Below are positions 19,416-62,671 of a stretch of 64,000 nt of DNA, in pieces. The DNA comes from Candidatus Zixiibacteriota bacterium (GTDB lineage: Bacteria; Zixibacteria; MSB-5A5; GN15; FEB-12). The DNA lies in contig JAWXAN010000070.1 in the NCBI GenBank assembly GCA_034439475.1, positions 26,906 through 90,905 on the forward strand, written 5' to 3'. The notes under the pieces were generated by a model. That model saw only the letters and a program-made list of their open reading frames with translations, was not told the DNA's origin and searched no databases. Made by a program: the position numbers and the translations under genes. The number at the start of each line of letters is the position of its first letter. Positions within the stretch are counted from its first letter, which is position 1.

Positions 19416-19431
19416 TGGCATTCTCCTTGCA
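19416..19431 (+). promoter_or_regulatory. Sigma-54 (-24/-12) promoter TGGCAT-N5-TTGCA
   Basis: The sequence ttGGcattctccttGCa keeps the exact GG-N10-GC spacing, 81 nt upstream of the ATG at 19512. Confidence 0.65.
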
Positions 19432-23292: not shown

Positions 23293-24899
23293 CTCCTCCG
23301 GCGACAACCGCTGCCCCAGTCATGGATGAAATCGGTATCGGTTTAGAGGGTGAAATGGTACGCGAATCGATCACTGTTGAGGAAGTTGAGACCCCTTCAC
23401 ACACAGAAACCTCCATAAATAAAATCCGAAGTTCGGTTCAGGTCGAAATTGAATCGTCGACCTCTCGCTCGGCAAACTTCGAAAGAAAGAAAAATTTTCT
23501 GTTGGCATTTGCCGGACAGACAGGCGAAACGATTGTCGCAACGGCTTCTCTTATAACAGCTTTGCTTTTAACTTCAAACTGGCAGAGCTGGATGATGCAA
23601 GCGTTGATGGTCGGGATTGCTATTCGAGTAGGCTACTATATTACTCGCGGTCCCCAGCCTGCGCTCACTTTTTCACGGATTCGAAAGAGATTGGGCTGGC
23701 TGTTTGCGGATGAGGCAAAACTGAGTCTTGCATTTCTGGCCACGAGCTATCTTTTTGTCTGGCCGATTGATAGAACGGCAGTGGGACTTTTTATTCTTTT
23801 AAACCTTGCTTCACAATTAATATTGTATAACATTGCAAAAGTAATTTTGGATTACGTTCGTCGTCAACGGAACACTTTTGGTCTGCGAGCGAAAGGATTG
23901 CCCGACCAATTCTCTTCCGTCAGGAAGGTTCTCATCGTTGGGACAGGCGTTCAAGGAAGAACAGTTGCCGATATGATTTTTGATTCTCCAGAACTAAAAA
24001 CGGATGTCACCGGTTTTGTTGATTTTCATCAGACCGGATTGTGGCGCTATCGGGATATCCCGCTTGCCGGACATCCTGATAATCTGGTCAAAATTATCGA
24101 GAAGGATCGGGCTGACGCTATTTTTGTGGCTGTTGAGCCGCAGGATCTCCCGCGCTCTCGCGCGCTTTTCGAAGCGGCTGAGAGAATGGGAGTGAGCCTT
24201 TTTGTCATGCCTGAGTTGTTCAAGCCACAGATAGCAGTTCCACGTTCAACTTATATAAATGGTTTGCCGGCATTTCTGTATCGTTCCGCGCCCACCAATC
24301 AGATTGCGCTTTTGGCCAAGGCTTTAGTCGATCGTATAGGTTCCGCCATTAGTCTGATGCTGCTGTCTCCGATTCTGTTGCTGATTGCGGCTGTTATTAA
24401 AATCGACAGCTGCGGGCCGATTTTTTTCAAGCAGGTCAGGGTCGGCCTCAACGGACGGCCGTTTATGCTCTATAAATTCAGGAGCATGTGCACCGATGCG
24501 GAGCAGAAGAAAGATGACCTGCTTGACCAAAATGAGATGTCAGGACCCGTGTTCAAAATTAAGGAGGATCCGCGAGTAACAAGACTCGGGAAATATCTCC
24601 GGGGATTTTCAATTGATGAGCTCCCTCAGCTTATCAATGTTTTCCGGGGCGAGATGTCTCTTGTCGGTCCCAGACCCGCGCTTCCGAACGAGGTGCGCAA
24701 CTTTGAGCCGTGGCATCGCCGCAAACTCTCTGTAAAACCCGGCATGACTTGTATCTGGCAAGTCAGCGGACGAAATGCGATTGATTTTGACAATTGGATG
24801 AGACTCGACCTTGAATATATCGACCGCTGGTCGCTCTGGCTTGACGCAAAGCTGATTATGAAAACTATCCCGACCGTGATTAAAGGGACCGGGATGTAG
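23289..24899 (+). CDS. Polyprenyl-phosphate glycosyl-1-phosphate transferase (WbaP/EpsB-type priming sugar transferase)
   Basis: The C-terminal bacterial sugar-transferase domain is present: SPILLLIAAVIKIDSCGPIFFKQVRVGLNGRPFMLYKFRSM...DPRVTRLGKYLRGFSIDELPQLINVFRGEMSLVGPRP. TM segments lie upstream. The start overlaps the previous gene (ATGA). Confidence 0.9.
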   Translation: MTPPATTAAPVMDEIGIGLEGEMVRESITVEEVETPSHTETSINKIRSSVQVEIESSTSRSANFERKKNFLLAFAGQTGETIVATASLITALLLTSNWQSWMMQALMVGIAIRVGYYITRGPQPALTFSRIRKRLGWLFADEAKLSLAFLATSYLFVWPIDRTAVGLFILLNLASQLILYNIAKVILDYVRRQRNTFGLRAKGLPDQFSSVRKVLIVGTGVQGRTVADMIFDSPELKTDVTGFVDFHQTGLWRYRDIPLAGHPDNLVKIIEKDRADAIFVAVEPQDLPRSRALFEAAERMGVSLFVMPELFKPQIAVPRSTYINGLPAFLYRSAPTNQIALLAKALVDRIGSAISLMLLSPILLLIAAVIKIDSCGPIFFKQVRVGLNGRPFMLYKFRSMCTDAEQKKDDLLDQNEMSGPVFKIKEDPRVTRLGKYLRGFSIDELPQLINVFRGEMSLVGPRPALPNEVRNFEPWHRRKLSVKPGMTCIWQVSGRNAIDFDNWMRLDLEYIDRWSLWLDAKLIMKTIPTVIKGTGM

Positions 24900-41933: not shown

Positions 41934-44594
41934 CTACCGGCTGAGATCTTTTTCCCAATTGAGAGTTATCACAAAAGTCGCCTCTTGCTGATTGCCATCT
42001 GGAACATTAATGATAAATCGCTGGCCGTCTCTTGAAACATCGTAGCGATACATAAGACCGATTCCTTTCGTATTATATCTCCGGTTAAAGAGCTTCTGCG
42101 GCGCACCAATGGTAATTTTATCTCCATCGATGGAAACCGGAACTGCCATAAAATCCCATTCCGGTGTGACATAATATAGTTCCTTGCCGTCTGCTCGGAA
42201 TTTTGGGGCAAATCCCTCAGAGGTTGAAACCTGCCATTTGCCGCTCGTGCCAGATGAATTCCGAATGTATATTTGGCTTGTTCCGGATTCGTCACTTTGA
42301 TACGCGACAAACCGTCCGTTAGGCGTAAATGAACCGCGACGTTCCTGAAATTCCTTGTTCGTAGAAATTTCTTGAATTTTGCTCGTATCCTCAAGATTGA
42401 GGATGAAAATATTCCATTGGTCGGTCCACTTGTTAAAGAGCAAGAATTTCCCATCGCGCGAAGCCTCTGCCGCAGTACAGAAAGATTCTCCTGAGGCGAG
42501 TATACTTCGGGGATCGCCCGACCCGTCTGACCTTAGTGAGAAAATCTGTCCGGATCCACCGGCGTCGGAGGTGTAAAAAATCGACTCATTGTCGAATGAC
42601 CATGCTGGGTGGAATTCGTTACCGCCGGAGAAAGTTAATTTTGAGGAAATATTTCGGGGAATATCGTGAACCCAAATGCTCACATCAAAATCGTCCCCAC
42701 GCTCGTACACGCCATAAACCAATTTTTGATCGTCGAACGAAAGATCCACGTCGCCATAGTAATCGCTCCCGCCAATTCTACTCAGTTCTTTGCCTCCACG
42801 GTCGAACCAAATAAGGTTGGATTTAGAATTGCCGCTTCCTTGTTGGTAGGCGAGTGTGCCGTTTTGTGATACCGAGAATAGTCCCACAAGCTCTTCGACC
42901 GCTATATTGTCAGTGATCGCTGTTGCGTCGCCCACGAATTCTAAAACATCCTCGTCAAACTTCTGCATCACCAAAACACCGTCTCGAATGAAGATTACAT
43001 GACCTGACGAAGTAAATTCTACGCGAGAGCCGACATCGAAGAAAGACTTATCTGCCGTGCCGTCTACTGCGCCCAGTTTGAGCATATTCGCACGAGAAGC
43101 GGCCGCACCCGTGTCAATAAAGGCGATATAAAAAAAGTGATTTCCATCGGGCAGAAAGGTAGGCCAGGCGTGAAATTTCTCTCCTTGAGCACGGTTTATT
43201 TTTGTTGCCCCTATTACTGCGCCGCCAGCTGCTGGCAACATCTGAATTGAATCAAAAGTCGACGCGTCAAAGATTACGACCCCATTCGTTCCCCAACTGC
43301 CGTCGCCGCCTCTCACCTGTACCACTTTTTGGGCAGGTCCTCCACTCACAAGGATTTTCTTAAATCCTTCTTGGCTGAAAAACCCGATAGACCGACTGTC
43401 CGGAGACCAGAACGGACGTTCCGCAATCTCGGTCCCGGGAAGTTTGTATGCTTGTAGCGCGTTCAGGGGACGAACCCATATACTTCTACTGCCGGATGAA
43501 TCAGAACCCAAAAAAGAGAGCATTTTGCCGTCTGGTGAAAGTTTCGGACTACCGATCGATTCAAATTCCGGCATGGAAAGTGTAAATCGTGTAACTTCTA
43601 CTTCTTCTTTCGGTTGGAAGAAGTATAGAGATGTAAAAACAACAGCCGTAATTATGCCGAGTGCCGCGACAATATTCGACATCCTGAATTGAAATCTTCT
43701 CTTCGAGGAAACTGAAAATGGTATTCCCGCCTGTGAACCAGATTGTGAAATCCAGCGAAGCTCATCGGTGAGGTCGCGAGCCGACTGCCATCTGTAGTGC
43801 GGGTCTTTTAAAAGACATTTTTTGACTACTCTATCGAGCGCGGGCGGGGTGAGAGGTTTAATTTCGGAAATCGACCTCGGTTCTCGCTCAATAATTGCGG
43901 CAATGAGACTCGCTTGGCTTTTTCCCTCGAACGGCCTGTTTCCCGTTATCATTTCATAGAGCAGTGCGCCAAAAGCAAAAATATCAGAGCGGGCATCGGC
44001 TTCACCCCCCTCGAGCTGTTCCGGCGACATATAGTTGAGCGTCCCCATAATTGCACCGGTACCCGTGAGCGGAGTCGACTGAGTCATGGCCGTGAGCGAT
44101 TGGACAGCGCCCCCTTGCACGGTTATCTTTGCGAGCCCGAAATCGAGAAGCTTTGCGCCTTCACGAGTGAGAATGACATTGCCTGGTTTTAGGTCCCGGT
44201 GAATCAGTCCGCGCTCGTGAGCGGCGCTTAGCGCCGTGCCAATCTGAATTGCATAGTTCAGGACATCTTCGGTTGAGAGTGATGTCCTCTTGAGGCGCTC
44301 GGAAAGCGTTTCCCCTTCGAGATACTCCATGACAAAAAACGAAGTGCCATTTTCAAATCCGACATCATAGAGCGTGCAGATATTCGGATGGTTCAAGCTG
44401 GAGACAATTTTGGCTTCGCGTTCGAAACGGGCGCGAAGATCCTTGTCATGCGCCATGCGCTCCGGAAGGATTTTGAGAGCGACAATTCGGTCGAGCCGCG
44501 TATCCTTGGCTTTATAGACTTCGCCCATGCCGCCTGCGCCAATAGCAGATTCAATTATATATGGCCCGAGCTGTTGGCCTATTGTGAGAGACAT
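41934..44594 (-). CDS. Ser/Thr protein kinase with TM segment and C-terminal TolB-like (PD40/WD40-like) beta-propeller
   Basis: Kinase motifs are present: GAGGMGEVYKA, VALKIL, HRDLKPGNVIL, DFGLAK and SPEQ. Repeated FSPDGK, WSPDSR, FLPDGN and FTPNGR propeller blades follow. Confidence 0.9.
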   Translation of the reverse strand: MSLTIGQQLGPYIIESAIGAGGMGEVYKAKDTRLDRIVALKILPERMAHDKDLRARFEREAKIVSSLNHPNICTLYDVGFENGTSFFVMEYLEGETLSERLKRTSLSTEDVLNYAIQIGTALSAAHERGLIHRDLKPGNVILTREGAKLLDFGLAKITVQGGAVQSLTAMTQSTPLTGTGAIMGTLNYMSPEQLEGGEADARSDIFAFGALLYEMITGNRPFEGKSQASLIAAIIEREPRSISEIKPLTPPALDRVVKKCLLKDPHYRWQSARDLTDELRWISQSGSQAGIPFSVSSKRRFQFRMSNIVAALGIITAVVFTSLYFFQPKEEVEVTRFTLSMPEFESIGSPKLSPDGKMLSFLGSDSSGSRSIWVRPLNALQAYKLPGTEIAERPFWSPDSRSIGFFSQEGFKKILVSGGPAQKVVQVRGGDGSWGTNGVVIFDASTFDSIQMLPAAGGAVIGATKINRAQGEKFHAWPTFLPDGNHFFYIAFIDTGAAASRANMLKLGAVDGTADKSFFDVGSRVEFTSSGHVIFIRDGVLVMQKFDEDVLEFVGDATAITDNIAVEELVGLFSVSQNGTLAYQQGSGNSKSNLIWFDRGGKELSRIGGSDYYGDVDLSFDDQKLVYGVYERGDDFDVSIWVHDIPRNISSKLTFSGGNEFHPAWSFDNESIFYTSDAGGSGQIFSLRSDGSGDPRSILASGESFCTAAEASRDGKFLLFNKWTDQWNIFILNLEDTSKIQEISTNKEFQERRGSFTPNGRFVAYQSDESGTSQIYIRNSSGTSGKWQVSTSEGFAPKFRADGKELYYVTPEWDFMAVPVSIDGDKITIGAPQKLFNRRYNTKGIGLMYRYDVSRDGQRFIINVPDGNQQEATFVITLNWEKDLSR

Positions 44595-44832
44595 TTCTTT
44601 CCTACCTTAATTTATCGTATCCGCGTGTTGTTCAATATAATCGATTCTCATGCTAAGATTCATAATTGAGTGGCCGGACAGCAAGGAGAAATTCGGACAG
44701 ACCAAAGAATGCTTTTAGATCAACTGGGCACCCCAAACTTATATTTGTCTTAGCCCCGCTATGATCGTATGATATTATCAAATGAGAAGGCGGCAGAATC
44801 TGTATCACAACCACCCCCCCGAATCATAAACC

Positions 44833-45099
44833 ATGCCAACATCGACAAAGCCAATCAAACTCTACATCCTTCGCTGTCGCGACAATAGTCTCTACACCGG
44901 AATTACAACCGATATCGACGAACGGCTTCGTGCCCACAACACCGGCAAAGGAGCAAAATACACTCGCGCACGTTTGCCTGTCAATTTGGTCTACACAGAA
45001 CAGTGCGGTTCGCGATCACTTGCGCTCAAAAGAGAATGGCAGATCAAACGCTGGAACAAACAGAAAAAAGAGGCCTTCGTAAAAGCCTCATCTCAATAA
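44833..45099 (+). CDS. GIY-YIG nuclease family protein (UPF0213/YhbQ-like), copy L
   Basis: 88 aa. KLYILRCRDNSLYTGITTDIDERLRAHNTGKGAKYTRARLPVNLVYTE...ALKREWQIKRW matches the GIY...YTG...R..H...Y core. Confidence 0.9.
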   Translation: MPTSTKPIKLYILRCRDNSLYTGITTDIDERLRAHNTGKGAKYTRARLPVNLVYTEQCGSRSLALKREWQIKRWNKQKKEAFVKASSQ

Positions 45100-45425
45100 A
45101 TTATCAAAGCCGGATAGCCGCGTTAATATCGCTCATCCAACCGCCACATTTCTCTTTTAAGAAATAGTCCCGACAGGTTGGGCTCTTGTTCGGTCATTTC
45201 TCTGTCGATATATGTATTATGAATGGAACGACTCTTCTCATCGGTCTCATCACCGGATCGGTTGGCTCGGGATTCTTTATCTATGGCAAAAAGCAACGCA
45301 AATGGCTGCCGATGCTTTCTGGAGTCCTGCTATGTATCGCGCCCTATTTTGTCGAGAATCTGACACTGCTTGTGGGCCTGTCTATAGTTCTCTGCGCGGT
45401 CCCTTTTGTTATCAAGGGTGATTGA
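44845..45425 (+). repeat. Left arm of diverged inverted duplication (GIY-YIG + small membrane gene)
   Basis: It aligns with the reverse complement of about 61684-62380, at roughly 80-90 percent nt identity by eye. Homology starts a few codons into the GIY-YIG ORF and ends exactly at the membrane-gene stop codon. Confidence 0.85.
45219..45425 (+). CDS. 68-aa hydrophobic membrane protein, copy L
   Basis: MNGTTLLIGLITGSVGSGFFIYGKKQRKWLPMLSGVLLCIAPYFVENLTLLVGLSIVLCAVPFVIKGD has two or three TM segments. It is conserved as a second copy at 61684-61890. The ORF-track start at 45186 is not conserved in copy R. Confidence 0.7.
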   Translation: MNGTTLLIGLITGSVGSGFFIYGKKQRKWLPMLSGVLLCIAPYFVENLTLLVGLSIVLCAVPFVIKGD

Positions 45426-52395: not shown

Positions 52396-52830
52396 TCAGA
52401 GGCGAAGAACTGAGAATGTCCCCGGTGAATGGTCGAAGAAGAGTTCAAGGGCATGAGCATTATATGTGGAATAATCTTCAAGAGAAGATTGCATACCTTG
52501 TATCAGGGAGGGCAAATACGGTCCGTAAGAAAGCAGAGATAAAGTATTGATCTCTCCGACTTGGTCGCCAGCCTTCAAGTAGTAGAACCACCCTGGGCAA
52601 CAGCTATGACTACGTGAATGATCAGAGGAGGAATGACAGGGTGAAGTAGTACTTGAAGAGGTTTCACTGTGACAGCATGGAGAGGCCGGAGGCGTGTCCG
52701 TAGGCGAAGCAGTGGTTACCGCTTTTGAATCAGAAGGATAGACAATACTACAAATACATCTGGTCTCGAATAATGAGACCATCGCCAGCAGAGCGATAAA
52801 GAGTTGAAATTGTTTTAAAAGACTTTTCAT
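52396..52830 (-). CDS. Small secreted Cys/His-rich protein, unknown function (leader gene of the cus-like operon)
   Basis: 144 aa. The signal peptide is MKSLLKQFQLFIALLAMVSLF, followed by PCCHSETSSSTTSPCHSSSDHSRSHSCCPGW. There is no obvious SD, and the C-terminal half is unrecognisable. Confidence 0.45.
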   Translation of the reverse strand: MKSLLKQFQLFIALLAMVSLFETRCICSIVYPSDSKAVTTASPTDTPPASPCCHSETSSSTTSPCHSSSDHSRSHSCCPGWFYYLKAGDQVGEINTLSLLSYGPYLPSLIQGMQSSLEDYSTYNAHALELFFDHSPGTFSVLRL

Positions 52831-53282: not shown

Positions 53283-55841
53283 ATGGCACATGAATCATCA
53301 TTTAAACCGGGCATGATGATTGGCTCTTATGAGATTGTACGGCTTGCTGGTTCGGGCGGGATGGGGGAAGTTTATCTTGCGAACGATACAAGACTTCATA
53401 GGAAGGTTGCGCTCAAGGTTCTGGCCATTGACCATCAGCGGCCAGTTGATGTCCGTATGCGGCTTCAGCAAGAAGCGCAAGCATTAGCGTCTGTGAGCCA
53501 TCCAAACATTGGCTCTATTTATGATCTCGTTGAGATTGACAATCGGCTCGTGATGGTCATGGAGTGGATAGAAGGTAAACTCCTTTCCAGTATAGTAGGG
53601 AGTGTCTCACAAGATCAGCTGCAATCAATAGCTGTGGATGTTGCTGCCGCTCTTTCTGCGGCTCACCACGCAGGCATTTGTCACGGGGACATTAAGCCGT
53701 CCAACATTATTCGCGGTGACGATGGCCGGACTCGGGTATTTGATTTCGGAATAGCGCGGACGTTTGCCGATTCCCTGAGTTACGCTGACTATTCCGGCAC
53801 AATATCCTATATGGCCCCTGAGCTGATTTCAGGAAATGCTCCGTCACCACAGTCTGACCAGTTCTCGCTGGGTGTGCTTTTGTACGAACTAGCAACCGGA
53901 ACAAAGCCGTTCTCTGGTGACTACGAAGCGGTCGTTCAATACCAAATCCTGAATCTGACCCCCGCACCGATAACTACGCTCCGTTCTGATCTGCCTCAGT
54001 TTTTGATTGACACGATTAATCAATTGCTCGAAAAGAATCCGGATCAACGATTTGGTGATACGTCAGAGATTTGTGCAGCGCTCGGACAACAGACTGCGGA
54101 GCCCGCATCAGGCCTCTTGTGGCGGCGTTCAGTCCGGGTCGCTTTGTCAGCAATTATCGCGGTGATTATTTTAAGCGCAGGTACGGCCATAGTCCGGTAC
54201 GGCGGGCATGAGGAAACAGATGATTCAGAACGAAGGACAATCGCCGTGCTCCCCTTCGAAAACACCGGAGGACCGTCGCAAGGATATTTCGCTGATGGCA
54301 TGACTGATGCGATAATCGCAGGACTCGCCCAAGACACGGCCGTCAGCGTTATCTCACGGCAGAGCGTTATGAACTACAGAGGGAGCAGTAAGACTATTCA
54401 AGAGATCGGCCGCGAACTGGCGGTCGCCTTCATCCTGACCGGCGGCATTCAGAGAAGCGCCAATACGAACGGTGATAATCTCCGCATAAGCGCGAATCTT
54501 GCCGACGTTCGCACTGGTCGAATGAGATGGGCCAAAGTGTACGACAGAAATCTGAATGGACTATTTGCCGTTCAGAATGAACTCGCAGTTGATGTGAAAA
54601 AGGCCCTGCATCTGAGCGACACTACTGGCAGGAATCTACCACCGCCCACTTTTAGTCTGAGCGCATACGATTTCTTCTTAAGAGGCAACGACTACTTTAA
54701 TCGGGGCTGGTCTCACGAGGACATTCGGTTCGCAATCGGAATGTACGAAAATGCGGTTGCCGAAGACTCGAGCTTTGCGATGGCTTATGCTATGCTTGCG
54801 CGATGTCACGCCAGTATGTTTTGGGAGTATTTTGATCGTACTGATAGTCGATGCCTCCGAGCGCGGCAAGCGGCAGATCGTGCGATGACGCTTAAAAGTG
54901 ATCTTCCTGAAGCATACCTCGCACTCGGCTACTACTATTATCATTGCGAGCTTGACTATATACGAGCGCTAGAGCAATTCTATATTGCACTTCGGTTAGA
55001 TCCTAATAATTGCGAATTGCTGAATGCCATCGCCGCCGTAGAACGGCGTCAGGGAAATCTCCCCATGGCTTTGGAGCATTTTAAACAGTCTCAAAAGATC
55101 GATCCACGCTCACATCTTAAAGCATTTGAAGTTGGGCTGACATATGGACTGATGCGGCAATATTCCGATGCGCACATATACCTCGATCGCGCCATAACGC
55201 TTTGTCCAGACTGGTCGCTGGCATATATTTATAAGGCATGGTTGTCCATTCTAGAGGACGGCGATATTGAAGCCGCGCGAGGGACACTTGCAAAAGCTCC
55301 ACCTGAAGCAAATCTGCAAAGAAGTCACTACTATTGGTGGCTTCAGCGAATTGTCCAACCGAATGTATCTCCCGAAATGACCCATATCCCAGTTATGGAT
55401 GACACCGCAGCGTACTATCTGTTTCTGAGTCAAATAAACCGATTGAGGTCCAATTCCTATATGCGGCGTGCTTATGCTGATTCGGCACGTAACTGGATAG
55501 CGCCGCGACTTGCCACCGCGCCGAACGCCGCCCGATATAACAGCTATCTTGGATTGGCTTATGCCGAATTGGGCGAGAAAGAAAAGGGGGTGCAATTCGG
55601 ACAGAAGGCATTGGAATTATTGCCGACCTCTCGCGATTCATTTGATGCCCTTTTTCTTCTTCTTAATATGGCCGAAATTCTGGTGATTGTAGGAGAGCAG
55701 GAACAAGCGATTGGGCAGATTCAATATATGCTCAGCCTGCCGGGGTTTGTCTCGAAGCCATATTTCAAGGTCGATCCGTTATGGAGGTCATTAGAGGCGC
55801 AGCCAGAATATCGAAAGCTGATATATGGAAGCAGCAGTTGA
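53283..55841 (+). CDS. Ser/Thr protein kinase (non-RD, HGD) with TM segment, TolB-N/FlgO-like periplasmic module and TPR repeats
   Basis: Kinase motifs are present: GSGGMGEVYLA, VALKVL, CHGDIKPSNII and DFGIAR. A TM segment (VALSAIIAVIILSAGTAIV) follows, then RRTIAVLPFENTGG...FADGMTDAIIAGL and a long TPR-like C-terminus. Confidence 0.85.
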   Translation: MAHESSFKPGMMIGSYEIVRLAGSGGMGEVYLANDTRLHRKVALKVLAIDHQRPVDVRMRLQQEAQALASVSHPNIGSIYDLVEIDNRLVMVMEWIEGKLLSSIVGSVSQDQLQSIAVDVAAALSAAHHAGICHGDIKPSNIIRGDDGRTRVFDFGIARTFADSLSYADYSGTISYMAPELISGNAPSPQSDQFSLGVLLYELATGTKPFSGDYEAVVQYQILNLTPAPITTLRSDLPQFLIDTINQLLEKNPDQRFGDTSEICAALGQQTAEPASGLLWRRSVRVALSAIIAVIILSAGTAIVRYGGHEETDDSERRTIAVLPFENTGGPSQGYFADGMTDAIIAGLAQDTAVSVISRQSVMNYRGSSKTIQEIGRELAVAFILTGGIQRSANTNGDNLRISANLADVRTGRMRWAKVYDRNLNGLFAVQNELAVDVKKALHLSDTTGRNLPPPTFSLSAYDFFLRGNDYFNRGWSHEDIRFAIGMYENAVAEDSSFAMAYAMLARCHASMFWEYFDRTDSRCLRARQAADRAMTLKSDLPEAYLALGYYYYHCELDYIRALEQFYIALRLDPNNCELLNAIAAVERRQGNLPMALEHFKQSQKIDPRSHLKAFEVGLTYGLMRQYSDAHIYLDRAITLCPDWSLAYIYKAWLSILEDGDIEAARGTLAKAPPEANLQRSHYYWWLQRIVQPNVSPEMTHIPVMDDTAAYYLFLSQINRLRSNSYMRRAYADSARNWIAPRLATAPNAARYNSYLGLAYAELGEKEKGVQFGQKALELLPTSRDSFDALFLLLNMAEILVIVGEQEQAIGQIQYMLSLPGFVSKPYFKVDPLWRSLEAQPEYRKLIYGSSS

Positions 55842-55851
55842 GCATGCTTGA

Positions 55852-57438
55852 TTAATCGGCAGGCAGCTTGAAACCGTAACGGACCATTTTGTCTTTCAGC
55901 CCCTTTCGAGTCAAACCCAACTGATCTGCTGTGCGCATGATATTGCCATTGGTTTCGGCAAGCGTTGACACAATCATGGTCTTCTCTAATTTTTCAACGG
56001 CCTGACGCATTTCCCCAAGCGAAGTACCAATACTTGAGATTTCCTCAGTCTCATCGTGGATTTCAGGAGATAGATGATAAGGCTTAATCTCAGTTTCTGG
56101 ATTGCAGACGACCGCCGCGCGCTCGATCACATGTTCGAGCTGCCGAGCGTTTCCGGGCCAGGAATATCGGTAAAGGGTGTCAAGCGCTTCCGATGAGACA
56201 GCCAGATTTGGCGCATTGAGCTTGATGCGCAGCAAGGAAAGAGCATGTTGCACCAACAGCGGAATATCGTCGCGTCGTTCTCTCAATGGCGGCAGTTCGA
56301 TCGTGAATGTGTTCAGTCGATAGTAAAGATCTTCCCGAAACGTGCCCTTGGCGATTTCGTCCTTAAGGTTGCGATTTGTGGCCGACAGGACTCGCACCTT
56401 TACTGTTTCGGTCTTACTTGCGCCAACTGGCCTGATTTCACCCGACTGGATGACACGCAAAATCGCAGCCTGGGTTGACAGCGGCGCATCCCCAATTTCA
56501 TCAAGAAAGATAGTACCACCTTGAGCCTCTTTGAATAGTCCCGGCTTTTCCTTGTCTGCGCCGGTGAATGCTCCCCTGACGTGGCCGAAGAGCTCTGATT
56601 CAAGCAGCGACTCTGTTTTAATTGCGCAGTTTTTCACAACAAATGGCTGGTGCCGGAGATCGCTGTTCGCGTGAATTGCCCGGGCAATGAGTTCCTTCCC
56701 CGTGCCGGTTTCCCCTGTGATAAGTACCGGAGCGTTATTAGCGCTAAACTTTGACGCCAGCATAAGCACATGACGAATTGCGCGAGACGAACCGACGATA
56801 TTCTCAAAAGAAGGGCCAACCCCAAGCTCCGTGCGCAATATTGCGTTTTCATCCTTAAGCTGTTTGTACGATAACTCAAGCAGTTCGTTGTTCTGAGCCA
56901 GGTCTTTCAAGAGCTGTGCGTTGGCGAGTATTTGCGCAGACTGGGCCGAAAGAATTCCAACTAAACGGCAATGGTCCTCGGTGAATGGTCCCTTCTGACG
57001 TGATCGCACTAGCGCTACTACTCCTATCGCCTCGTCCCGAACTAAGAGCGGGCAACAGATCGCCGACGTGAACCGCCCATTATCGGAATCGAGATCCTGA
57101 AAACGTCTGTCAGTGTCCAGATCATCAATCCGCGCTAACTGGCGGTGAGAGAGCACCCAGCCAGCAAGTGATTGGCTTATTTGAAAAGGAAGTTCAGAAT
57201 TTCGTCGGTCATTATTGCGAATAACTGTCGTTAATGCGTCAGCTTGCTTTTTTGACACGATGCTTATGACTCCCTGATCCGCTTCGGTTACTCTTGTCAA
57301 CTCAGTAAGAATGATATTCATGATGTGATTTACTTCGCGGACCTGACAAATACGGCCGACTACTGTGTTAATCAGACGCAGTTCCTCTACGGCCTGCCAA
57401 TTTCTCGGATCGGGTTGCATTGCGCTCATTTTTCTCAA
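55852..57438 (-). CDS. Sigma-54-dependent transcriptional activator (GAF - AAA+ - Fis-type HTH)
   Basis: It has an N-terminal GAF-like domain and Walker A VLITGETGTGKE. The GAFTGA loop is exact (RGAFTGADK). The C-terminal HTH is NGNIMRTADQLGLTRKGLKDKM. There is no receiver domain. Confidence 0.9.
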   Translation of the reverse strand: MRKMSAMQPDPRNWQAVEELRLINTVVGRICQVREVNHIMNIILTELTRVTEADQGVISIVSKKQADALTTVIRNNDRRNSELPFQISQSLAGWVLSHRQLARIDDLDTDRRFQDLDSDNGRFTSAICCPLLVRDEAIGVVALVRSRQKGPFTEDHCRLVGILSAQSAQILANAQLLKDLAQNNELLELSYKQLKDENAILRTELGVGPSFENIVGSSRAIRHVLMLASKFSANNAPVLITGETGTGKELIARAIHANSDLRHQPFVVKNCAIKTESLLESELFGHVRGAFTGADKEKPGLFKEAQGGTIFLDEIGDAPLSTQAAILRVIQSGEIRPVGASKTETVKVRVLSATNRNLKDEIAKGTFREDLYYRLNTFTIELPPLRERRDDIPLLVQHALSLLRIKLNAPNLAVSSEALDTLYRYSWPGNARQLEHVIERAAVVCNPETEIKPYHLSPEIHDETEEISSIGTSLGEMRQAVEKLEKTMIVSTLAETNGNIMRTADQLGLTRKGLKDKMVRYGFKLPAD

Positions 57439-57649
57439 TTTCTTTGGTGCGTGTCTTCCATCTCAAAATAGGAAGGCAATGCCGTGAGGTCAACCTTTTA
57501 GTACTGATTGATTGAAAGCAAGTAACCACCAATTCAGCCTCAATTGTATAGTTTCTATCCTCTCGCTATTAATTTCGTCTTGATCTTGCTGCTGTCCACA
57601 CCCTTGTCTGGCTTTAGCTTCAGACAGTTTCGAGCAAGTCGAATGTCTT

Positions 57650-57665
57650 TGGCACTAACCTTGCC
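57650..57665 (+). promoter_or_regulatory. Sigma-54 (-24/-12) promoter TGGCAC-N5-TTGC
   Basis: The sequence tTGGCACtaaccTTGCc is a perfect consensus core, 126 nt upstream of the ATG at 57791. It is divergent from the activator gene. Confidence 0.8.
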
Positions 57666-57790
57666 TTGCATAGAGACATGGTAAACAAAATGGCTCGAAA
57701 GGAAGAAATGAGTACGAACGAAACTCAGAGGGTTAGTACGACCAAACTCATACAATCAGCAATTAAAACAATGACAGGAGAAGGAACACT

Positions 57791-59035
57791 ATGATTTCAC
57801 GAATGATCGCTCTGTTTGTGTGTATGGCACTGGCATTAATAGCCGGCGCCTGCCAAGAGAATAAAAACCCCATGAATTATGCCGACAACTTCTCGGCGAG
57901 GGCCAACAACGAAAACGCCGCGCTGAGTCCGGCGGCCTCTGCTCCTGATCCGTCGGGGCAGGTGACGATATCGGCAGGCAGCAAATCACTGACGTTCTGG
58001 CCATTCACATCGAACAACTTCGAGGGAGAACCGCAAGACCCGATTAACCTAATCTTTTTTGGGAAATGCGATCCAAGACAAATTCGCGCCGCATTAATGG
58101 GTCTGGATGGTGACCGATCGGCATTGGGCTTTCCGGCTGTTGCGCCCTTTAACTCACGATGGGATGATGCTATTGGAGATGTTCAAACCAGTTACGGCGA
58201 TGGCGGATGGACCGGCGGCGTTATTCAACTCGCCTGCGGTGATTATATGTCAGTCCGTTTTCATTTACGACTGTTTACTATGGGCGAGTGGACGGTCGGC
58301 AATGTTCATTTTGAAGCATTGATCCCCGGCACGGCCGATCACCAAGTCCTCAATTGGGAAGTTGCCGAGCAGTTCGTGGTCGGTGATTTTTTCCGAAGCG
58401 GCTTGCTTGACGCAACTACTCCGGTAATCCAGACCGAGCAGATAAATCCCTCTCCATTTCGAACGATACCAGCAATTATCTATAATGGTCTCCCGCACGA
58501 ATTACAGGGACTTATCGGAGGACCGATTGGACAGGTGCAAAACGACGTTCCGATAGGAACCGACGGCCATGCGATGATTTTGAATCTTGCTCATGCCGTT
58601 CCCGTAGTTCCCGAAACCAAGGTTCAGGAATTCGTAGTGTTTTACGACCAGGTCATTCCGAAACCATTCTGCAACGATGGCGATGATTACCTCTACGCGC
58701 AGGGACCGGTTACACTCGAACAGGTAGTGACAATAACTCATGATCTCAATTATGAGTTATCTTTCAAAGCTGAAGGCACATTGACCCTGACTCCGGTCAA
58801 TCCGTTGGACGGTCAGCCCCTTGGTCCATCTCTGAGGGCGAAAGTAATGGAAAAACATAGGGGACGATTCACAACACGTAACTGGACAGTGGGCAGTTCC
58901 AAGCTGCAAAAGATCACTCCCGCCAACGCGCCAGGGGCGGGCTCGCTCAAAAGCGATCTTGAAATAAACTCAAATGGCAAAAACGACTACTCTATTTTCA
59001 TCCGGTGCGCCGATGAGGCGATCGCTGGGAAATAG
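57791..59035 (+). CDS. Probable lipoprotein, unknown function (operon gene 1)
   Basis: 414 aa. AGGAGAAGGA precedes the ATG. The signal peptide is MISRMIALFVCMALALIAGAC. I cannot name any domain with confidence. Confidence 0.7.
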   Translation: MISRMIALFVCMALALIAGACQENKNPMNYADNFSARANNENAALSPAASAPDPSGQVTISAGSKSLTFWPFTSNNFEGEPQDPINLIFFGKCDPRQIRAALMGLDGDRSALGFPAVAPFNSRWDDAIGDVQTSYGDGGWTGGVIQLACGDYMSVRFHLRLFTMGEWTVGNVHFEALIPGTADHQVLNWEVAEQFVVGDFFRSGLLDATTPVIQTEQINPSPFRTIPAIIYNGLPHELQGLIGGPIGQVQNDVPIGTDGHAMILNLAHAVPVVPETKVQEFVVFYDQVIPKPFCNDGDDYLYAQGPVTLEQVVTITHDLNYELSFKAEGTLTLTPVNPLDGQPLGPSLRAKVMEKHRGRFTTRNWTVGSSKLQKITPANAPGAGSLKSDLEINSNGKNDYSIFIRCADEAIAGK

Positions 59036-59116
59036 AGCTCATTGACATTAAGACGGGCGCCAGAAGGTTGGTTTTCTGCCCATATCTCTGGCGCCGCGAA
59101 TAGGAGAAGAAGAAAC

Positions 59117-59878
59117 ATGAAATATTATTTATCTTCGTCGGCCTTTATGTTCTGCATACTTGCGATTCTTAGCGCAGACAGCGCCACAGCCGCTTCGAAA
59201 CGGTCAGCGGCAGAGCTTGCAGGTCTGCCTGCCGTCGACAGCGCGCTCAAGATTACAAAGGTGCACACACCGGTCAGTTTTCCGCGTCTGATCACAGGGC
59301 TGGGTATTGGGCTCGCTACGGCCGGTACATCTTCGATCAAATCAGGATTGGATACCGTGCTGGCCTCATATGGAGTTGCTGGCAACTCCCGTATTGGTGA
59401 GCCGTCCACTTCAATTACCGCGGGTTTCCGCTTTCAATTCTCGGAGCGGCTAGGAATCTTTTTAGATTTTCTAAATGGAGGCACCCCGAACGCAAACCAG
59501 TTCATCAAATCGGCCGCCAGTGTCGGGTTAGTTGTGACTCCGTTTCGAACTCGCACCGGTTCCGCCGCTGTTTCGTTTGGAAGCGGTATAACGGTTCAGA
59601 AACTCGAGTCACATACTACCTATAACCTCCCCATACCCTCCAGCTTTGGCACACTGGAATACATTAGGATCGAAACACACAGTACTCTCGGCGTCCCGCT
59701 GGTTGCGATGCTGGAATTGCCCGCCGCCGCGACCTCACGATACAGCATGATATTCACTGCGCGGCACGTCTTCTCACCCGACGCCAAAGTGGAGGAAAAC
59801 TACTCCCCCGGCACAAATTTTAAGGTCAATATGTCGGGAAACTACTTTTCCATAATGCTGAACGCTGGCATAAATTAG
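59117..59878 (+). CDS. Secreted protein, possibly small beta-barrel OMP, unknown function (operon gene 2)
   Basis: AGGAGAAG precedes the ATG at 59117. The signal peptide is MKYYLSSSAFMFCILAILSADSATA. The body has an alternating beta-like pattern, is Gly/Ser/Thr-rich, and has no C-terminal Phe. The ORF-track start at 59042 adds an Arg-rich leader. Confidence 0.6.
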   Translation: MKYYLSSSAFMFCILAILSADSATAASKRSAAELAGLPAVDSALKITKVHTPVSFPRLITGLGIGLATAGTSSIKSGLDTVLASYGVAGNSRIGEPSTSITAGFRFQFSERLGIFLDFLNGGTPNANQFIKSAASVGLVVTPFRTRTGSAAVSFGSGITVQKLESHTTYNLPIPSSFGTLEYIRIETHSTLGVPLVAMLELPAAATSRYSMIFTARHVFSPDAKVEENYSPGTNFKVNMSGNYFSIMLNAGIN

Positions 59879-59910
59879 ATTTTAGGTTTATAGAAAGAAG
59901 AGAGACTATT

Positions 59911-61461
59911 ATGAAAAAGATAACGCCTTCAACAATTACATTGATTCTGATGACATTTCTTATGCTCAATAGTTGCGTACCCTACCGGCAGTGGGTGCCG
60001 CCACAGGGTCTGACAGCGAACACTAAAGGCCGCATGGAAGTTCTGACAAGGAACGGCAATGTCTATCGATTATCCAATGGACGTTTTATGAATTACAATA
60101 TCTTGGGGTTAGGATCGGTGACAACAACCGAAAATAAGACAGATGCATTTGGGGGAAGTATCCCATTGGACAGTATTGCGCTTGTGCAGGTGCACCGCGA
60201 AGATCTGTTCGCTGGCCTGTTATCTACGGCGAGCACACTCGCAGTCGTCGTCTTGGGCATTGTTGCAACTGCCGAAGGCCAGACTGGGGTGACTGTCGGT
60301 ATCCGTTACCCTCCTAGCTCCGGCGGCGGGTGGGGTTCCTGTCCGCTCGCTTATTCGCTCAAGGATGACAGCCTTCATCTCGAATCCGAAACCTATGTAG
60401 GCGCAATTTGCGGCAAACTTGAGCGAACTGCAACCGATGTGCTGAGACACTTAGGGCCATCTGGTGACAGTCTGACTCTCAGTATTCGAAACGACTCGCC
60501 TGAAACTCATCTGACCAATTCGGTGAGCCTGATGGCAGTAGATCATCCGTTAGGGACAGAGGTCGTTACAGATATCTACGGCACACTACATACCGTTGGA
60601 GATCGTATTCCCTGCAGAATGGCTCGCGATGAACGAGGGCGCGATGTCACATCGCTGGTCGTATCCAGAGATAGCTCTTCGTATACAGCCAATCTGATTG
60701 AAATCGATCCTGAAAATGAGGAAGATCTTCGCGATGCCGTCACAGTTGAATTTAACTGTCCGCCCGAAGCACGCCGCGCCAAACTTATCGTGACCTGCAT
60801 GAACTCAGACCTTGCCGACTACGCTCTCAACAAGCTCTTCTCGTTGCGCGGTCCATCAAAACTGCAGTACTATCACAAGCTCGACAATGACCGATCTGAA
60901 TTTTTTAAGCTGGTTGGATGGATGTTTCGCGAGGGCGGGCTTGAAGTTTCGGTGTGGGATAATGACCATTGGGTCCGCAATGGTTCAATTGCAGGAGTAG
61001 GCGGACGAGTCTTTGGCGAGCGAATAGTTTTAATTGATCTTGCGGTAACTGACAGTAAAGTCCGTGTGAAACTTGAAGGGACATCCGGACTGTGGAAGGT
61101 CGATGCGGTTGAAATAGATTACTCCGAAGATGCCGCGTTCGAGCTTACGGAAGCTCACTTGCGTCAGGCGCTGACAAACAAGGGGGAAAATATTGCGTCA
61201 ATTCTCGCTGACCAGGATCAGGACTACTTCCGGACAATCACAGATGAATGGGTCAATTTGTCATTTGATACTGTTAAGATCAAGTCCGGCTTCAGCCGAA
61301 GCTACATTTTGAAAACGACCGGCCACTACTTCGGCTGGTTTGAACAGGATGATCAGGACAATAGCGCTGTAGCCGATCGCATTTTGACCGAGCCATTGTA
61401 CGGAAGTAAGCTCTATCTCAAAGACTGGCTGCGGGCGAAAGCGACGGTTGCGAAAAAATAA
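59911..61461 (+). CDS. Secreted/lipid-anchored protein with one internal hydrophobic segment, unknown function (operon gene 3)
   Basis: 516 aa. MKKITPSTITLILMTFLMLNSC is a signal peptide ending in Cys. A hydrophobic stretch LFAGLLSTASTLAVVVLGIVATA is followed by ...WGSCPLAYSLKDD.... I cannot name any domain. Confidence 0.7.
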   Translation: MKKITPSTITLILMTFLMLNSCVPYRQWVPPQGLTANTKGRMEVLTRNGNVYRLSNGRFMNYNILGLGSVTTTENKTDAFGGSIPLDSIALVQVHREDLFAGLLSTASTLAVVVLGIVATAEGQTGVTVGIRYPPSSGGGWGSCPLAYSLKDDSLHLESETYVGAICGKLERTATDVLRHLGPSGDSLTLSIRNDSPETHLTNSVSLMAVDHPLGTEVVTDIYGTLHTVGDRIPCRMARDERGRDVTSLVVSRDSSSYTANLIEIDPENEEDLRDAVTVEFNCPPEARRAKLIVTCMNSDLADYALNKLFSLRGPSKLQYYHKLDNDRSEFFKLVGWMFREGGLEVSVWDNDHWVRNGSIAGVGGRVFGERIVLIDLAVTDSKVRVKLEGTSGLWKVDAVEIDYSEDAAFELTEAHLRQALTNKGENIASILADQDQDYFRTITDEWVNLSFDTVKIKSGFSRSYILKTTGHYFGWFEQDDQDNSAVADRILTEPLYGSKLYLKDWLRAKATVAKK

Positions 61462-61683
61462 GCTTCGAAGAAAGGACCGCCTGCCTTCACACCATGGTGG
61501 ACAGTGGTTCCGCCTTGGGTGTCAGTCTCGACGCGCTATTTTTACACTGACCGGGGAAGCTTAAGACATGAGTAAGGTCACTTGCGCTGAAATTTTCACT
61601 TTTCTCATTGGTCGATTCCATTAGTCTAAATGGATGAAAATGAATAATACCATTAGTAAAAGTGTAACGAAGTATTTTATCAT

Positions 61684-61890
61684 TCAGTCACCCTTGATAA
61701 CAAAGGGGACAGTGCAGAGAACTATCGACAGGCACACAAGCAGTGTCAGGTTCTCGACAAAATAAGGCGCGACACACAACAGGGCTCCTGAGAGCATCGG
61801 CAGCCACCGGCGTTGCTTTTTGCCATAGATGAAAAATCCGGAGCCAACCGATCCGGTGATGAGCCCGATAAGGAGAGTGGTTCCGGTCAT
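61684..61890 (-). CDS. 68-aa hydrophobic membrane protein, copy R
   Basis: MTGTTLLIGLITGSVGSGFFIYGKKQRRWLPMLSGALLCVAPYFVENLTLLVCLSIVLCTVPFVIKGD matches copy L at 62 of 68 residues. Confidence 0.7.
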   Translation of the reverse strand: MTGTTLLIGLITGSVGSGFFIYGKKQRRWLPMLSGALLCVAPYFVENLTLLVCLSIVLCTVPFVIKGD

Positions 61891-62380
61891 TGTCTTTTCG
61901 TCCAGCGCTTAACGTTATTGATAGGTCAAACATATATACCTGCCGCAGGGAATTTTTCATCAAGGATTCACCGGGGCAGGTTACTTTACGTTTGACAGGA
62001 TCATAGTAAATATATCGGGAGAAGATTGGCTGAGCATGAGCCCAACCAGTTGGGACTATTTGTCAAACAAGAGTCGTAATGCTCGAATCAGCGAAATCAA
62101 TGCGGCTGTCCGGCCTTGATGAATGGTTGAGCAGACTCCTTCACAAACGCCTCTTTTTTCCGTTTGGTCCATCCTTTAATCTGCCATTCTCTTTTGAGAG
62201 CAAGTGATCGCGAACTGCACTGTTCTGTGTAGACCACATTGACCGGTAGACGAGCGCGAGTGTATTTGGCTGCATTACCAGCGTTGTGCGCACGAAGCCG
62301 CTCGTCTATATCAGTTGTTATTCCGGTATACAGACTATTATCGCGGCAGCGAAGAATGTAGAGTTTGAGCGGCTTTTTGT
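61684..62380 (-). repeat. Right arm of diverged inverted duplication (GIY-YIG + small membrane gene)
   Basis: It is the reverse complement of the left arm. Relative to the left arm it carries an extra stretch of about 90 nt between the two genes. Confidence 0.85.
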
Positions 62381-62390
62381 GCGCTGACAT
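62097..62390 (-). CDS. GIY-YIG nuclease family protein (UPF0213/YhbQ-like), copy R
   Basis: 97 aa. KLYILRCRDNSLYTGITTDIDERLRAHNAGNAAKYTRARLPVNVVYTE...ALKREWQIKGW. It runs 9 codons longer at the C-terminus than copy L, which has a premature TAA relative to it. Confidence 0.9.
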   Translation of the reverse strand: MSAHKKPLKLYILRCRDNSLYTGITTDIDERLRAHNAGNAAKYTRARLPVNVVYTEQCSSRSLALKREWQIKGWTKRKKEAFVKESAQPFIKAGQPH

Positions 62391-62671
62391 ATTTTACAAT
62401 CCGTGCATATCGTTTTGACGTATACTCTCTTGCCAGTCGGGCAATTCAATGTCTTCTCATCTACTATTATGATACCGCGTTCACTGAGCGAGGTCAAATG
62501 TTCTCGTTGAAGTCCTATATGGCAATATAAATTGTTGGGCGGCTGTAAAGAAGAATGTAACTCCAGAAAAAGTGAACCGTCAGGTGACACTTCTGCCTCG
62601 CTCAAATCGCGTCGCAAGCGAGAGCTGAGGGAACGGTTCTACCACTGCCCATGCGCCACCGAAAAGACCGC

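Follow-up and report, generated by a model that had tools for sequence, protein, structure and literature searches.

A conserved kinase–activator–lipoprotein block and a separable two-gene cassette at a sigma-54 locus in Zixibacteria

We describe here a sigma-54 locus from a Candidatus Zixiibacteriota bacterium in which two enhancer-dependent gene sets seem to have come together. It lies in a 64-kb window (the whole stretch of DNA that was analyzed, 64,000 nucleotides), where the gene for a GAF-type sigma-54 activator is divergent from three genes for envelope proteins, here called genes 1, 2 and 3, and convergent with the gene for a membrane Ser/Thr kinase. A reading made from the sequence alone had proposed that the activator and the three genes form one dedicated envelope module. 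We found instead that the locus is best explained, and probably so, as two sigma-54-dependent units under one sensory pair: a block of kinase, activator and gene 1 that is conserved across species, and a cassette of genes 2 and 3 that stands by itself in relatives.

This explanation is built on features that we observe directly, namely the domain architectures, the conservation of the promoter, the synteny of kinase, activator and gene 1, the independence of genes 2–3 and the recurrent proximity of the two units. We are highly confident of the regulatory architecture and of the division into two units, moderately confident that the kinase is involved and that the genes are co-transcribed, and have low confidence in the biochemical role, for which envelope or lipid remodeling is our best guess.

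Results

A kinase, a GAF-type activator and gene 1 form a conserved block

All four open reading frames (ORFs) of the sequence-only reading, the activator and genes 1–3, are present (Table 1). It had described the activator as having a GAF sensor, an exact GAFTGA loop and a Fis-type helix-turn-helix (HTH) and as lacking a receiver domain, and Pfam domains and motif positions agree on each point. The Pfam scan placed GAF at residues 35–171, Sigma54_activat at 214–381 (PF00158, E 3.8e-66) and HTH_8 at 481–521, together with AAA_lid_14, and found no receiver domain; GAFTGA is at residue 289, the Walker A motif GETGTGKE at 242 and the Walker B motif DEIG at 313. With an AAA+ domain that carries GAFTGA and Walker A/B motifs, a Fis-type HTH combined with an N-terminal sensor, and a −24/−12 promoter nearby, the protein belongs to the bacterial enhancer-binding protein (bEBP) family. 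It missed every NCBIfam equivalog cut-off, among them those for NorR (344.8 bits versus 476), NifA (339.4 versus 528.85) and FhlA (265 versus 830), and is thus a generic, bona fide GAF-type bEBP with no named equivalog. Its orthologues are 54–62% identical over the full length and are divergent from gene 1 in 25 other loci (26 including the window).

Table 1 Coordinates of the features of the locus in the window (TM, transmembrane)
Feature	Positions	Strand	Description
Membrane Ser/Thr kinase, 852 aa	53283–55841	+	Pkinase 16–258 (Pfam); TM helix ~281–308 (hydrophobicity); extracytoplasmic region with TPR repeats
GAF-type sigma-54 enhancer-binding protein (activator)	55852–57438	−	528 aa from TTG; 522–525 aa from the ATGs of other gene callers
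Imperfect palindrome TCAACCTTTTAGTACTGATTGATTGA	57490–57515		~150 nt upstream of the −24 element; 75% complementarity
Sigma-54 (−24/−12) promoter TGGCACTAACCTTGC	57650–57664	+	0 mismatches to TGGCAC-N5-TTGC
Gene 1 (G1), 414-aa lipoprotein	57791–59035	+	
Hairpin GGCGCCAGA...TCTGGCGCC	59056–59095	+	In the 81-nt gene 1–gene 2 spacer; no U-run; not a canonical terminator
Gene 2 (G2), 253-aa secreted beta-rich protein	59117–59878	+	Signal peptide
Gene 3 (G3), 516 aa	59911–61461	+	Lipoprotein signal with Cys22; WGSCPLAYS core
Weak terminator-like hairpin with T-run	61519–61543	+	58 nt past the gene 3 stop; consensus match only

The kinase and activator genes meet tail to tail, their stop codons 10 bp apart. 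When we mapped the window proteins onto 80 retrieved gene 1 loci and clustered all neighboring ORFs, the arrangement of the window (kinase forward, activator reversed, gene 1 forward) recurred identically in Zixibacteria-type loci. In about 18 loci the kinase is the immediate neighbor, and a few others have it no more than two genes away (about 18–20 species-level loci). Full-length orthologues of the kinase are 40–47% identical, or about 30% identical in a second clade. The kinase had been treated as a mere neighbor; because it recurs beside the activator–gene 1 pair, we count it as a member of the conserved module, which consists of the Ser/Thr kinase, the GAF activator, the sigma-54 promoter and gene 1.

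What lies 3′ of gene 1 varies among the loci and includes small secreted proteins, a B12-radical-SAM protein, GDSL lipases, an HMG-lyase/CoA-transferase pair and a five-gene lipid cluster. The lipid cluster encodes an NAD_binding_4 acyl reductase, a DAGK_cat kinase, a CTP_transf_1 cytidylyltransferase, a CDP-alcohol phosphatidyltransferase and an LCM methyltransferase; it adjoins the kinase–activator–gene 1 block in seven Zixibacteria loci (L012, L013, L016, L026, L032, L041 and L042), at a position that is occupied in the window by a metal-efflux operon.

The promoter upstream of gene 1 is conserved across species

The 352-bp divergent spacer between the activator and gene 1 (57439–57790) had been said to hold a consensus TGGCAC-N5-TTGC promoter, and it does: TGGCACTAACCTTGC is the only perfect consensus match in the window, and it is phylogenetically conserved. 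It lies ~127 nt upstream of the gene 1 ATG and would therefore give a leader of ~115 nt. We scanned the gene 1 strand of orthologous spacers, requiring GG and GC and allowing ≤2 mismatches to the consensus, and found an equivalent promoter in 24 of 26 activator–gene 1 spacers; the background rate for these loci is 0.13 per 500 nt. At ≤1 mismatch, 18 of 34 Zixibacteria-like loci have such a promoter, compared with 0.03 expected (background 0.03 per 500 nt), and none of 31 Gemmatimonadota loci does. When the spacers were aligned in register on the promoter, information was confined to the promoter's own columns, and in the columns that the scan does not force (positions 4 and 5, C and A, and the TT of the −12 box) the consensus base is kept in 21–22 of 22 sequences.

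The palindrome listed in Table 1 is the sole inverted repeat found in the spacer and is a weak candidate for an activator-binding site. A further claim, that the trio shares an upstream motif with the exopolysaccharide-export promoter, did not survive: the common elements are only the 9-mer TCCATCTCA, at unequal distances from the two promoters, and the short CCTTGTCT, and they are not above chance.

Three more sigma-54-like elements, each with one mismatch, occur in the window at 19416 (+), 22115 (+) and 3045 (−). The element TGGCATTCTCCTTGC stands 96 nt before a Wza-like Poly_export/SLBB gene (19512–21878), and CGGCACCTTCCTTGC precedes an operon for an aminotransferase and a sugar transferase (22189–24899). 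Use of sigma-54 at envelope and polysaccharide genes seems to be widespread in this organism.

Gene 1 is a widespread lipoprotein beside varying regulators

Homologues of gene 1 at about 50% identity fill at least 858 90%-clusters. A scan of one genome per species with an alignment query found gene 1 in 113 species genomes, the 80 loci above were retrieved, and the family spans Zixibacteria, Gemmatimonadota and Eisenbacteria. The protein comprises an N-terminal alpha/beta domain (residues ~58–260) rich in invariant Arg, His, Asp and Glu, followed by a C-terminal domain of seven long antiparallel beta-strands (262–406). Of 66 orthologues drawn from several phyla, 95% retain the lipobox Cys21, and conservation of 93–100% extends from Cys21 to Cys294, Cys406, D83, N86, R99, R109, D126, Q146 and R156, and likewise to H158, R160, H173, T181, H184, E190, E193, D199, R202 and Y231. 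Such a pattern would suit either a receptor that binds an anionic ligand or an enzyme that works outside the cytoplasm.

The AlphaFold2 (AF2) model of gene 1 is confident, with a predicted local distance difference test score (pLDDT) of 88 and a predicted template-modeling score (pTM) of 0.82. Foldseek found nothing significant for it in the PDB (best E 0.1, probability 0.12) or BFVD. Genes 1, 2 and 3, searched as single sequences and as profiles, gave no match in Pfam, NCBIfam, PADLOC or PDB sequences even at E ≤ 1–10. The statement that the trio is assignable to no known family therefore stands, and the comparison of predicted models agrees with it, with no significant match for gene 1 and only weak generic ones for gene 3.

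One lead for gene 1 was LssY_C (PF14067), to which 9 of 34 gene 1 relatives have sub-threshold matches (best E 0.089) and the window protein has none. In P0100, the only member inspected, the match reaches 11.6 bits (gathering score 25) over 24 profile positions. In relatives, the first gene 1 motif, P-I-N-L-I-F-x-G, aligns to profile positions 11–34, whereas gene 1 has an extra C-terminal beta-domain that sets it apart from LssY_C. With all matches below the gathering threshold and none for the window protein, we rejected membership and retain the resemblance as a lead only; LssY_C has no known function, and the link would add little even if it were real.

Gene 1 always adjoins a sensor/regulator pair, and the type of regulator differs by phylum. 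In Gemmatimonadota (L047, L055, L056, L058, L066, L075, L084, L086 and L090) kinase, regulator and gene 1 follow one another on the same strand, and the regulator is a Trans_reg_C+BTAD+AAA_16 protein of SARP/AfsR-like architecture; the kinase there is homologous to the window kinase beyond the catalytic domain (36% over residues 14–851 in L057). In Eisenbacteria (L060, L071, L073 and L091) the genes convergent with gene 1 encode a receiver-type bEBP and a GAF-HisKA-HATPase kinase, and in two Gemmatimonadaceae loci (L052 and L054) gene 1 is convergent with an AAA_16-TPR-LuxR regulator. From these gene orders, the regulator around a constant gene 1 target looks to have undergone non-orthologous displacement. 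Because gene 1 stays constant while the transcription factor is replaceable, we argue that gene 1 is a dedicated target of sensory pairs. Its neighbors elsewhere include genes for FA_desaturase, PAP2_3, DAGK_cat, CTP_transf_1, CDP-OH_P_transf, NAD_binding_4, ketoacyl synthase, GDSL lipase and B12 radical SAM proteins, neighborhoods that may loosely indicate lipid or outer-membrane remodeling.

Genes 2 and 3 form a cassette with its own promoter and activator in relatives

The proposal that the activator and the trio are one dedicated, co-conserved system was not sustained, because the trio is seen only in contigs of the same population. Twenty-one metagenome contigs, from several JGI and SRA samples, carry identical copies of gene 3 with the gene order unchanged, and these contigs are one population; the nearest named relatives of the gene 1, gene 2 and gene 3 products are Zixibacteria metagenome-assembled genomes. 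Among the 80 species-level gene 1 loci, none has genes 2–3 directly 3′ of gene 1, an arrangement found only in the window. Looked for elsewhere together with the activator, the trio is not co-conserved as a whole. Its sub-modules are, and they re-associate near each other in two Zixibacteria loci (L022 and L020) and three Gemmatimonadota loci (L047, L055 and L090).

The closest relatives of gene 3 (56–67% identity; L007, L011 and L212) lie in loci with the order sigma-54 promoter, gene 2, gene 3, small lipoprotein and receiver-type bEBP, with gene 1 absent and a sigma-54 element CGGCAC-N5-TTGC placed 76–78 nt before the gene 2 start. Orthologues of gene 2 (42–44% identical) stand directly upstream of gene 3 orthologues in these three loci and in L022. 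On the L022 chromosome, a sigma-54 element leads into a 126-aa gene, gene 2 and gene 3, and this operon is divergent from the kinase of the kinase–activator–gene 1 block; in L020, a perfect TGGCACCAAGCTTGC precedes an operon with gene 2 in the same position as in L022. In the three Gemmatimonadota loci, gene 1 is separated from the kinase/regulator by a gene 3 homologue, which a ketoacyl synthase often accompanies. Genes 2–3 are thus an independent cassette with its own promoter and activator in relatives, and the two units are repeatedly neighbors, yet are joined in one apparent operon only in the window.

The lipoprotein that separates the cassette from the bEBP is 144–156 aa long (L007 9870–10340, L011 2961–3431 and L212 3448–3882) and 74–77% identical among the three loci, and has no Pfam match and no counterpart in the window. 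The receiver-type bEBP of the cassette is 96% identical between L007 and L212.

In the window, gaps of 81 nt and 32 nt separate gene 1 from gene 2 and gene 2 from gene 3. A terminator scan of the gene 1–gene 2 gap found no terminator, and the gap contains no sigma-54 or sigma-70 consensus. We also considered a remnant sigma-54 promoter there and rejected it, as none is present and no homology links the gap with the promoter regions upstream of gene 2 orthologues. The hairpin in the gap has a fold energy of −24.6 kcal/mol and a z-score of −1.47, and an Rfam scan of 55000–62500 gave no real match. Given the absence of signals in the gap, genes 2–3 are most likely expressed by read-through from 57650. 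As for the claim that the trio is co-regulated by an enhancer-dependent promoter, the promoter is real and co-transcription is plausible on these grounds.

Outside its own orthologues, the only relatives detected for gene 2 are the 'd3' proteins described in the next section, with whose C-terminal beta-rich half it is weakly similar (hhalign probability 24%, E 8e-4, 175 columns). Regarding an outer-membrane beta-barrel, gene 2 has no Pfam match and its C-terminus, ...NAGIN, is not aromatic; the weakly similar d3 proteins end in ...GLHF. Homology of gene 2 to the small secreted proteins c11, c31, c39 and c8, found 3′ of gene 1 elsewhere, was rejected (hhalign probability ≤1.6%).

Gene 3 belongs to a large family often paired with radical SAM enzymes

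Gene 3 is laid out as Cys22, a small beta-domain (23–98), a TM-like helix (97–122; Kyte-Doolittle 2.15), a Gly/Ser linker, the tripeptide S143-C144-P145 (S-C-P) and a C-terminal domain (146–510) that is beta-sandwich-rich in the AF2 model (pLDDT 73, pTM 0.65). Against the PDB, Foldseek returned only generic jelly-roll, Eph-LBD or CBM-like matches for this model, with a query TM-score <0.2. A word-indexed search found six relatives of gene 3, and we used an exhaustive profile search instead, which gave 4,094 cluster representatives at E ≤ 1e-3 and 1,231 at E ≤ 1e-30. A small N-terminal beta-domain is among the hallmarks of this family. Within it, S143, C144 and P145 are conserved in 94%, 98% and 100% and the lipobox Cys in 87%, and the TM-like helix has a median Kyte-Doolittle value of 2.03 and reaches ≥1.6 in 84% of members. 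The gene 3 of the window carries all of the family hallmarks: the lipobox Cys, the TM-like helix, S-C-P, E198, W354, W395, D436 and G471 (87–100% in the family).

To sample the wider family we retrieved 120 metagenome loci with a degenerate DNA pattern for CPF[VI]YSFDG, which covers only the motif-bearing part of the family and not the SCPLAYS branch of the window. These loci (L092–L211, for example L109, L170, L162 and L179) show a recurrent three-gene cassette in which d3, d4 or d5, small lipoprotein or beta-rich proteins, precedes a gene 3 homologue that is followed by a radical SAM gene. Of 79 evaluable downstream neighbors, 38 encode a radical SAM+SPASM protein (d1) or a membrane-bound radical SAM protein (d2). 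The d1 and d2 neighbors reach no NCBIfam cut-off, and the non-enzyme members of the cassette have no Pfam or NCBIfam model. The idea that the wider family is generally sigma-54 dependent was rejected, with such an element at only 2 of 64 operon starts. A tblastn search of the window with 16 family radical SAM proteins found no radical SAM gene, nor is there one within 8 kb of the Zixibacteria-type cassettes L007, L011, L022 and L212.

The layout of gene 3 bears on where its domains reside. If the N-terminus is outside and the helix spans the membrane, the S-C-P domain would be cytoplasmic and accessible to a radical SAM partner, and a cytoplasmic S-C-P domain would contradict export of all three products. 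The claim that all three are exported accordingly holds at the level of the export signals, which are present at all three N-termini, and is uncertain for gene 3, whose C-terminal domain may be cytoplasmic.

Discussion

In the two-unit reading that we favor, Unit A would be ancestral in Zixibacteria, with a Hanks-type TM kinase bearing a TPR sensor and a cytoplasmic GAF bEBP controlling the 57650 promoter and thereby gene 1, whose product would be a periplasm-facing lipoprotein. Unit B would be a mobile two-gene cassette, encoding a secreted beta-rich protein and a membrane-anchored S-C-P protein, that has lost its own promoter in the window. The kinase would sense an envelope signal, the GAF domain a small ligand, or both; the activator would then oligomerize and remodel sigma-54 RNA polymerase at 57650; and gene 1 would be made, with read-through into genes 2–3, so that the products alter or maintain the envelope, probably a lipid or outer-membrane component. 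We infer the signaling from kinase to activator, the co-transcription of genes 2–3 with gene 1 and any biochemical role. An envelope or lipid role is suggested by the lipobox of gene 1, its pair of invariant Cys, its many invariant Arg, His, Asp and Glu residues and its lipid-gene neighbors elsewhere, and by the sigma-54-like promoters that precede polysaccharide-export genes in the window. An enhancer-dependent, signal-induced envelope role, as first proposed for a module of unknown function, is still reasonable, whereas the single dedicated module is not supported.

Several points weigh against this two-unit reading. The action of the kinase on the activator is putative: the two genes are convergent rather than co-transcribed, and the GAF domain could sense a small ligand alone. 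Aligned spacers across species reveal no upstream activator site conserved at a fixed distance from the promoters, and a sigma-54 element was not detected upstream of gene 1 in Eisenbacteria despite the adjoining bEBP. Co-transcription of genes 2–3 with gene 1, plausible as it is, is argued only from the lack of signals in the gap, where the hairpin could attenuate transcription. The usual radical SAM partner and the non-sigma-54 operons of the gene 3 family mean that its core function may be unrelated to gene 1. Finally, the lipid idea leans on a loose enrichment of neighbors (about a quarter of loci) and on a resemblance to LssY_C that stays below threshold (E ≥ 0.089).

Lipoproteins such as RcsF or NlpE pass envelope signals to their kinases, and the gene 1 product might similarly be an extracytoplasmic co-sensor that binds the TPR region of the kinase, in which case its sigma-54-driven synthesis would close a feedback loop. 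TPR repeats are protein-binding modules, invariant polar residues cluster densely at a surface or pocket of the gene 1 product, and gene 1 stays beside a homologous kinase even though the regulator has been swapped (bEBP in Zixibacteria, SARP/AAA in Gemmatimonadota). However, the regulators next to gene 1 in Eisenbacteria and in some Gemmatimonadaceae come without this kinase, and the invariant Arg/His/Asp cluster equally resembles an enzyme active site, which leaves the co-sensor rather unlikely in our view.

We are similarly doubtful that genes 2–3 are unrelated passengers, placed here by an accident of rearrangement, with the gene 3 Cys in S-C-P modified by, or working with, a radical SAM enzyme encoded elsewhere. 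That 38 of 79 downstream neighbors in the wider family are radical SAM/SPASM or membrane radical SAM proteins speaks for it, as do the 94–100% conservation of S-C-P directly after a conserved TM-like helix and the inverted gene duplicates that bracket the segment and could promote rearrangement. Yet no such radical SAM gene occurs in the window or within 8 kb of the Zixibacteria-type cassettes, and the Zixibacteria cassettes have sigma-54 promoters and lie beside the kinase–activator–gene 1 block in at least two other genomes. The sigma-54 promoters and the repeated proximity to the block therefore argue for a shared regulon over an accident. A dedicated four-gene system, in which the GAF activator would serve genes 1-2-3 and their products would act as a complex (for example, lipoprotein, outer-membrane barrel and anchored partner), is quite improbable: the tight spacing without a terminator between the genes, the export signals that begin all three proteins and the recurrence of gene 1 and gene 3 homologues within a few kb in other phyla are outweighed by a trio confined to same-population contigs, by 0 of 80 gene 1 loci with genes 2–3 directly 3′ and by closest gene 3 relatives (56–67% identity) that have no gene 1 and a different activator.

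The regulatory logic of a bEBP, sigma-54 and envelope genes is familiar, and the locus belongs to no named system. The window resembles PspF–pspABCDE and the GAF activators NorR, NifA and FhlA in its divergent −24/−12 promoter and envelope-directed output, and its activator has the same architecture of GAF, AAA+ with GAFTGA and Fis-type HTH as these NtrC-family GAF activators. However, no domain of the Psp, Nor, Nif or Hyc proteins occurs in the targets in the window, and the conserved partner is a Ser/Thr kinase rather than a PspA-type antagonist or a known small ligand. We rejected membership of the phage-shock (Psp) system, as genes 1–3 have no Pfam or NCBIfam match at E ≤ 1 and hence none to PspA/IM30 or PspB/C.

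Another parallel is offered by AfsK/AfsR-type pairs, which combine a Hanks-type kinase with a SARP-AAA regulator in Streptomyces; Myxococcus has networks of kinases and bEBPs. The AfsK/AfsR-type pairs likewise set a membrane Ser/Thr kinase beside a large ATPase-type activator, and the Gemmatimonadota gene 1 loci have their Trans_reg_C+BTAD+AAA_16 regulator by the kinase. The regulator in the window differs in being a GAF-bEBP rather than a SARP, an FHA domain for reading phospho-threonine is absent, and the output is one lipoprotein gene as opposed to a secondary-metabolite regulon. We know of no description of direct control of a GAF-type sigma-54 activator by a Hanks-type kinase, and a literature search gave no relevant match on Zixibacteria sigma-54, on LssY/PF14067 or on a Zixibacteria lipoprotein with a kinase.

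For gene 3, the comparison is with pairs of a radical SAM maturase and its substrate, such as the anaerobic sulfatase-maturating enzyme, which acts on a Cys/Ser-x-Pro-x-Arg substrate. The wider gene 3 family likewise pairs an invariant S-C-P with an adjacent radical SAM/SPASM protein in about half of the loci. Unlike in sulfatase maturation, the gene 3 motif is not C/S-x-P-x-R, and the gene 3 of the window has no radical SAM neighbor.

These comparisons lead to a broader picture, which we put forward tentatively and regard as unlikely in its entirety. Gene 1 would be a lipoprotein family of new fold and the conserved output, possibly also the co-sensor, of an undescribed envelope-signaling pathway in phyla of the Fibrobacteres–Chlorobi–Bacteroidetes (FCB) group (Zixibacteria, Gemmatimonadota and Eisenbacteria), in which a Hanks-type kinase is wired to the activator of each lineage, with direct control of a GAF-bEBP among the outcomes. 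Gene 3 would stand for a large unannotated family of membrane proteins in which the invariant Cys is a site of radical SAM chemistry. In the Zixibacteria branch, the maturase would have been lost and gene 3 drawn into the regulon.

Whatever its function, gene 1 is widespread (113 species genomes in at least three phyla), has a confident predicted structure without a PDB relative and dense invariant polar residues, and is tied to sensory regulators. The swap of the regulator with kinase and target retained offers a clean natural experiment, in phyla that have received little study, on the coupling of Hanks-type kinases to transcription. With gene 3 comes a family of about 4,000 sequence clusters that lies outside domain databases and is usually paired with radical SAM enzymes. 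We envision the gene 1 family, the regulator swap and the gene 3 family as handles on the envelope biology of uncultured Zixibacteria and Gemmatimonadota.

Repeat-bracketed segment and neighboring genes

The inverted-repeat bracket noted at the outset is real. Its arms (44805–45425 and 61684–62418) are 84% identical and enclose a 16.3-kb segment with the metal-efflux operon (RND efflux genes), the kinase, the activator and genes 1–3. The arms are a duplicated two-gene unit of a GIY-YIG protein (88 and 97 aa) and a 79-aa membrane protein. We rejected a composite transposon or mobile island, because the arms are ordinary gene duplicates and not transposon ends and no transposase was seen; the presence of the kinase–activator–gene 1 block without such repeats in other genomes further weakens a mobile-segment reading. 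The inverted copies could mediate inversion of the 16.3-kb segment.

Directly upstream of the efflux operon, which is of the OEP/CusB-like/AcrB type, a 144-aa ORF on the minus strand (52396–52830) encodes a secreted protein rich in Cys, His and Ser (…CCHSETSSSTTSPCHSSSDHSRSHSCCPGW…) with no Pfam match, which may be a periplasmic metal-binding accessory protein. The CusB-like protein of the operon has three HMBD repeats. Immediately beyond the left repeat arm is a second membrane Ser/Thr kinase of 886 aa (41934–44594, minus strand), which combines Pkinase with a PD40/TolB-like beta-propeller.

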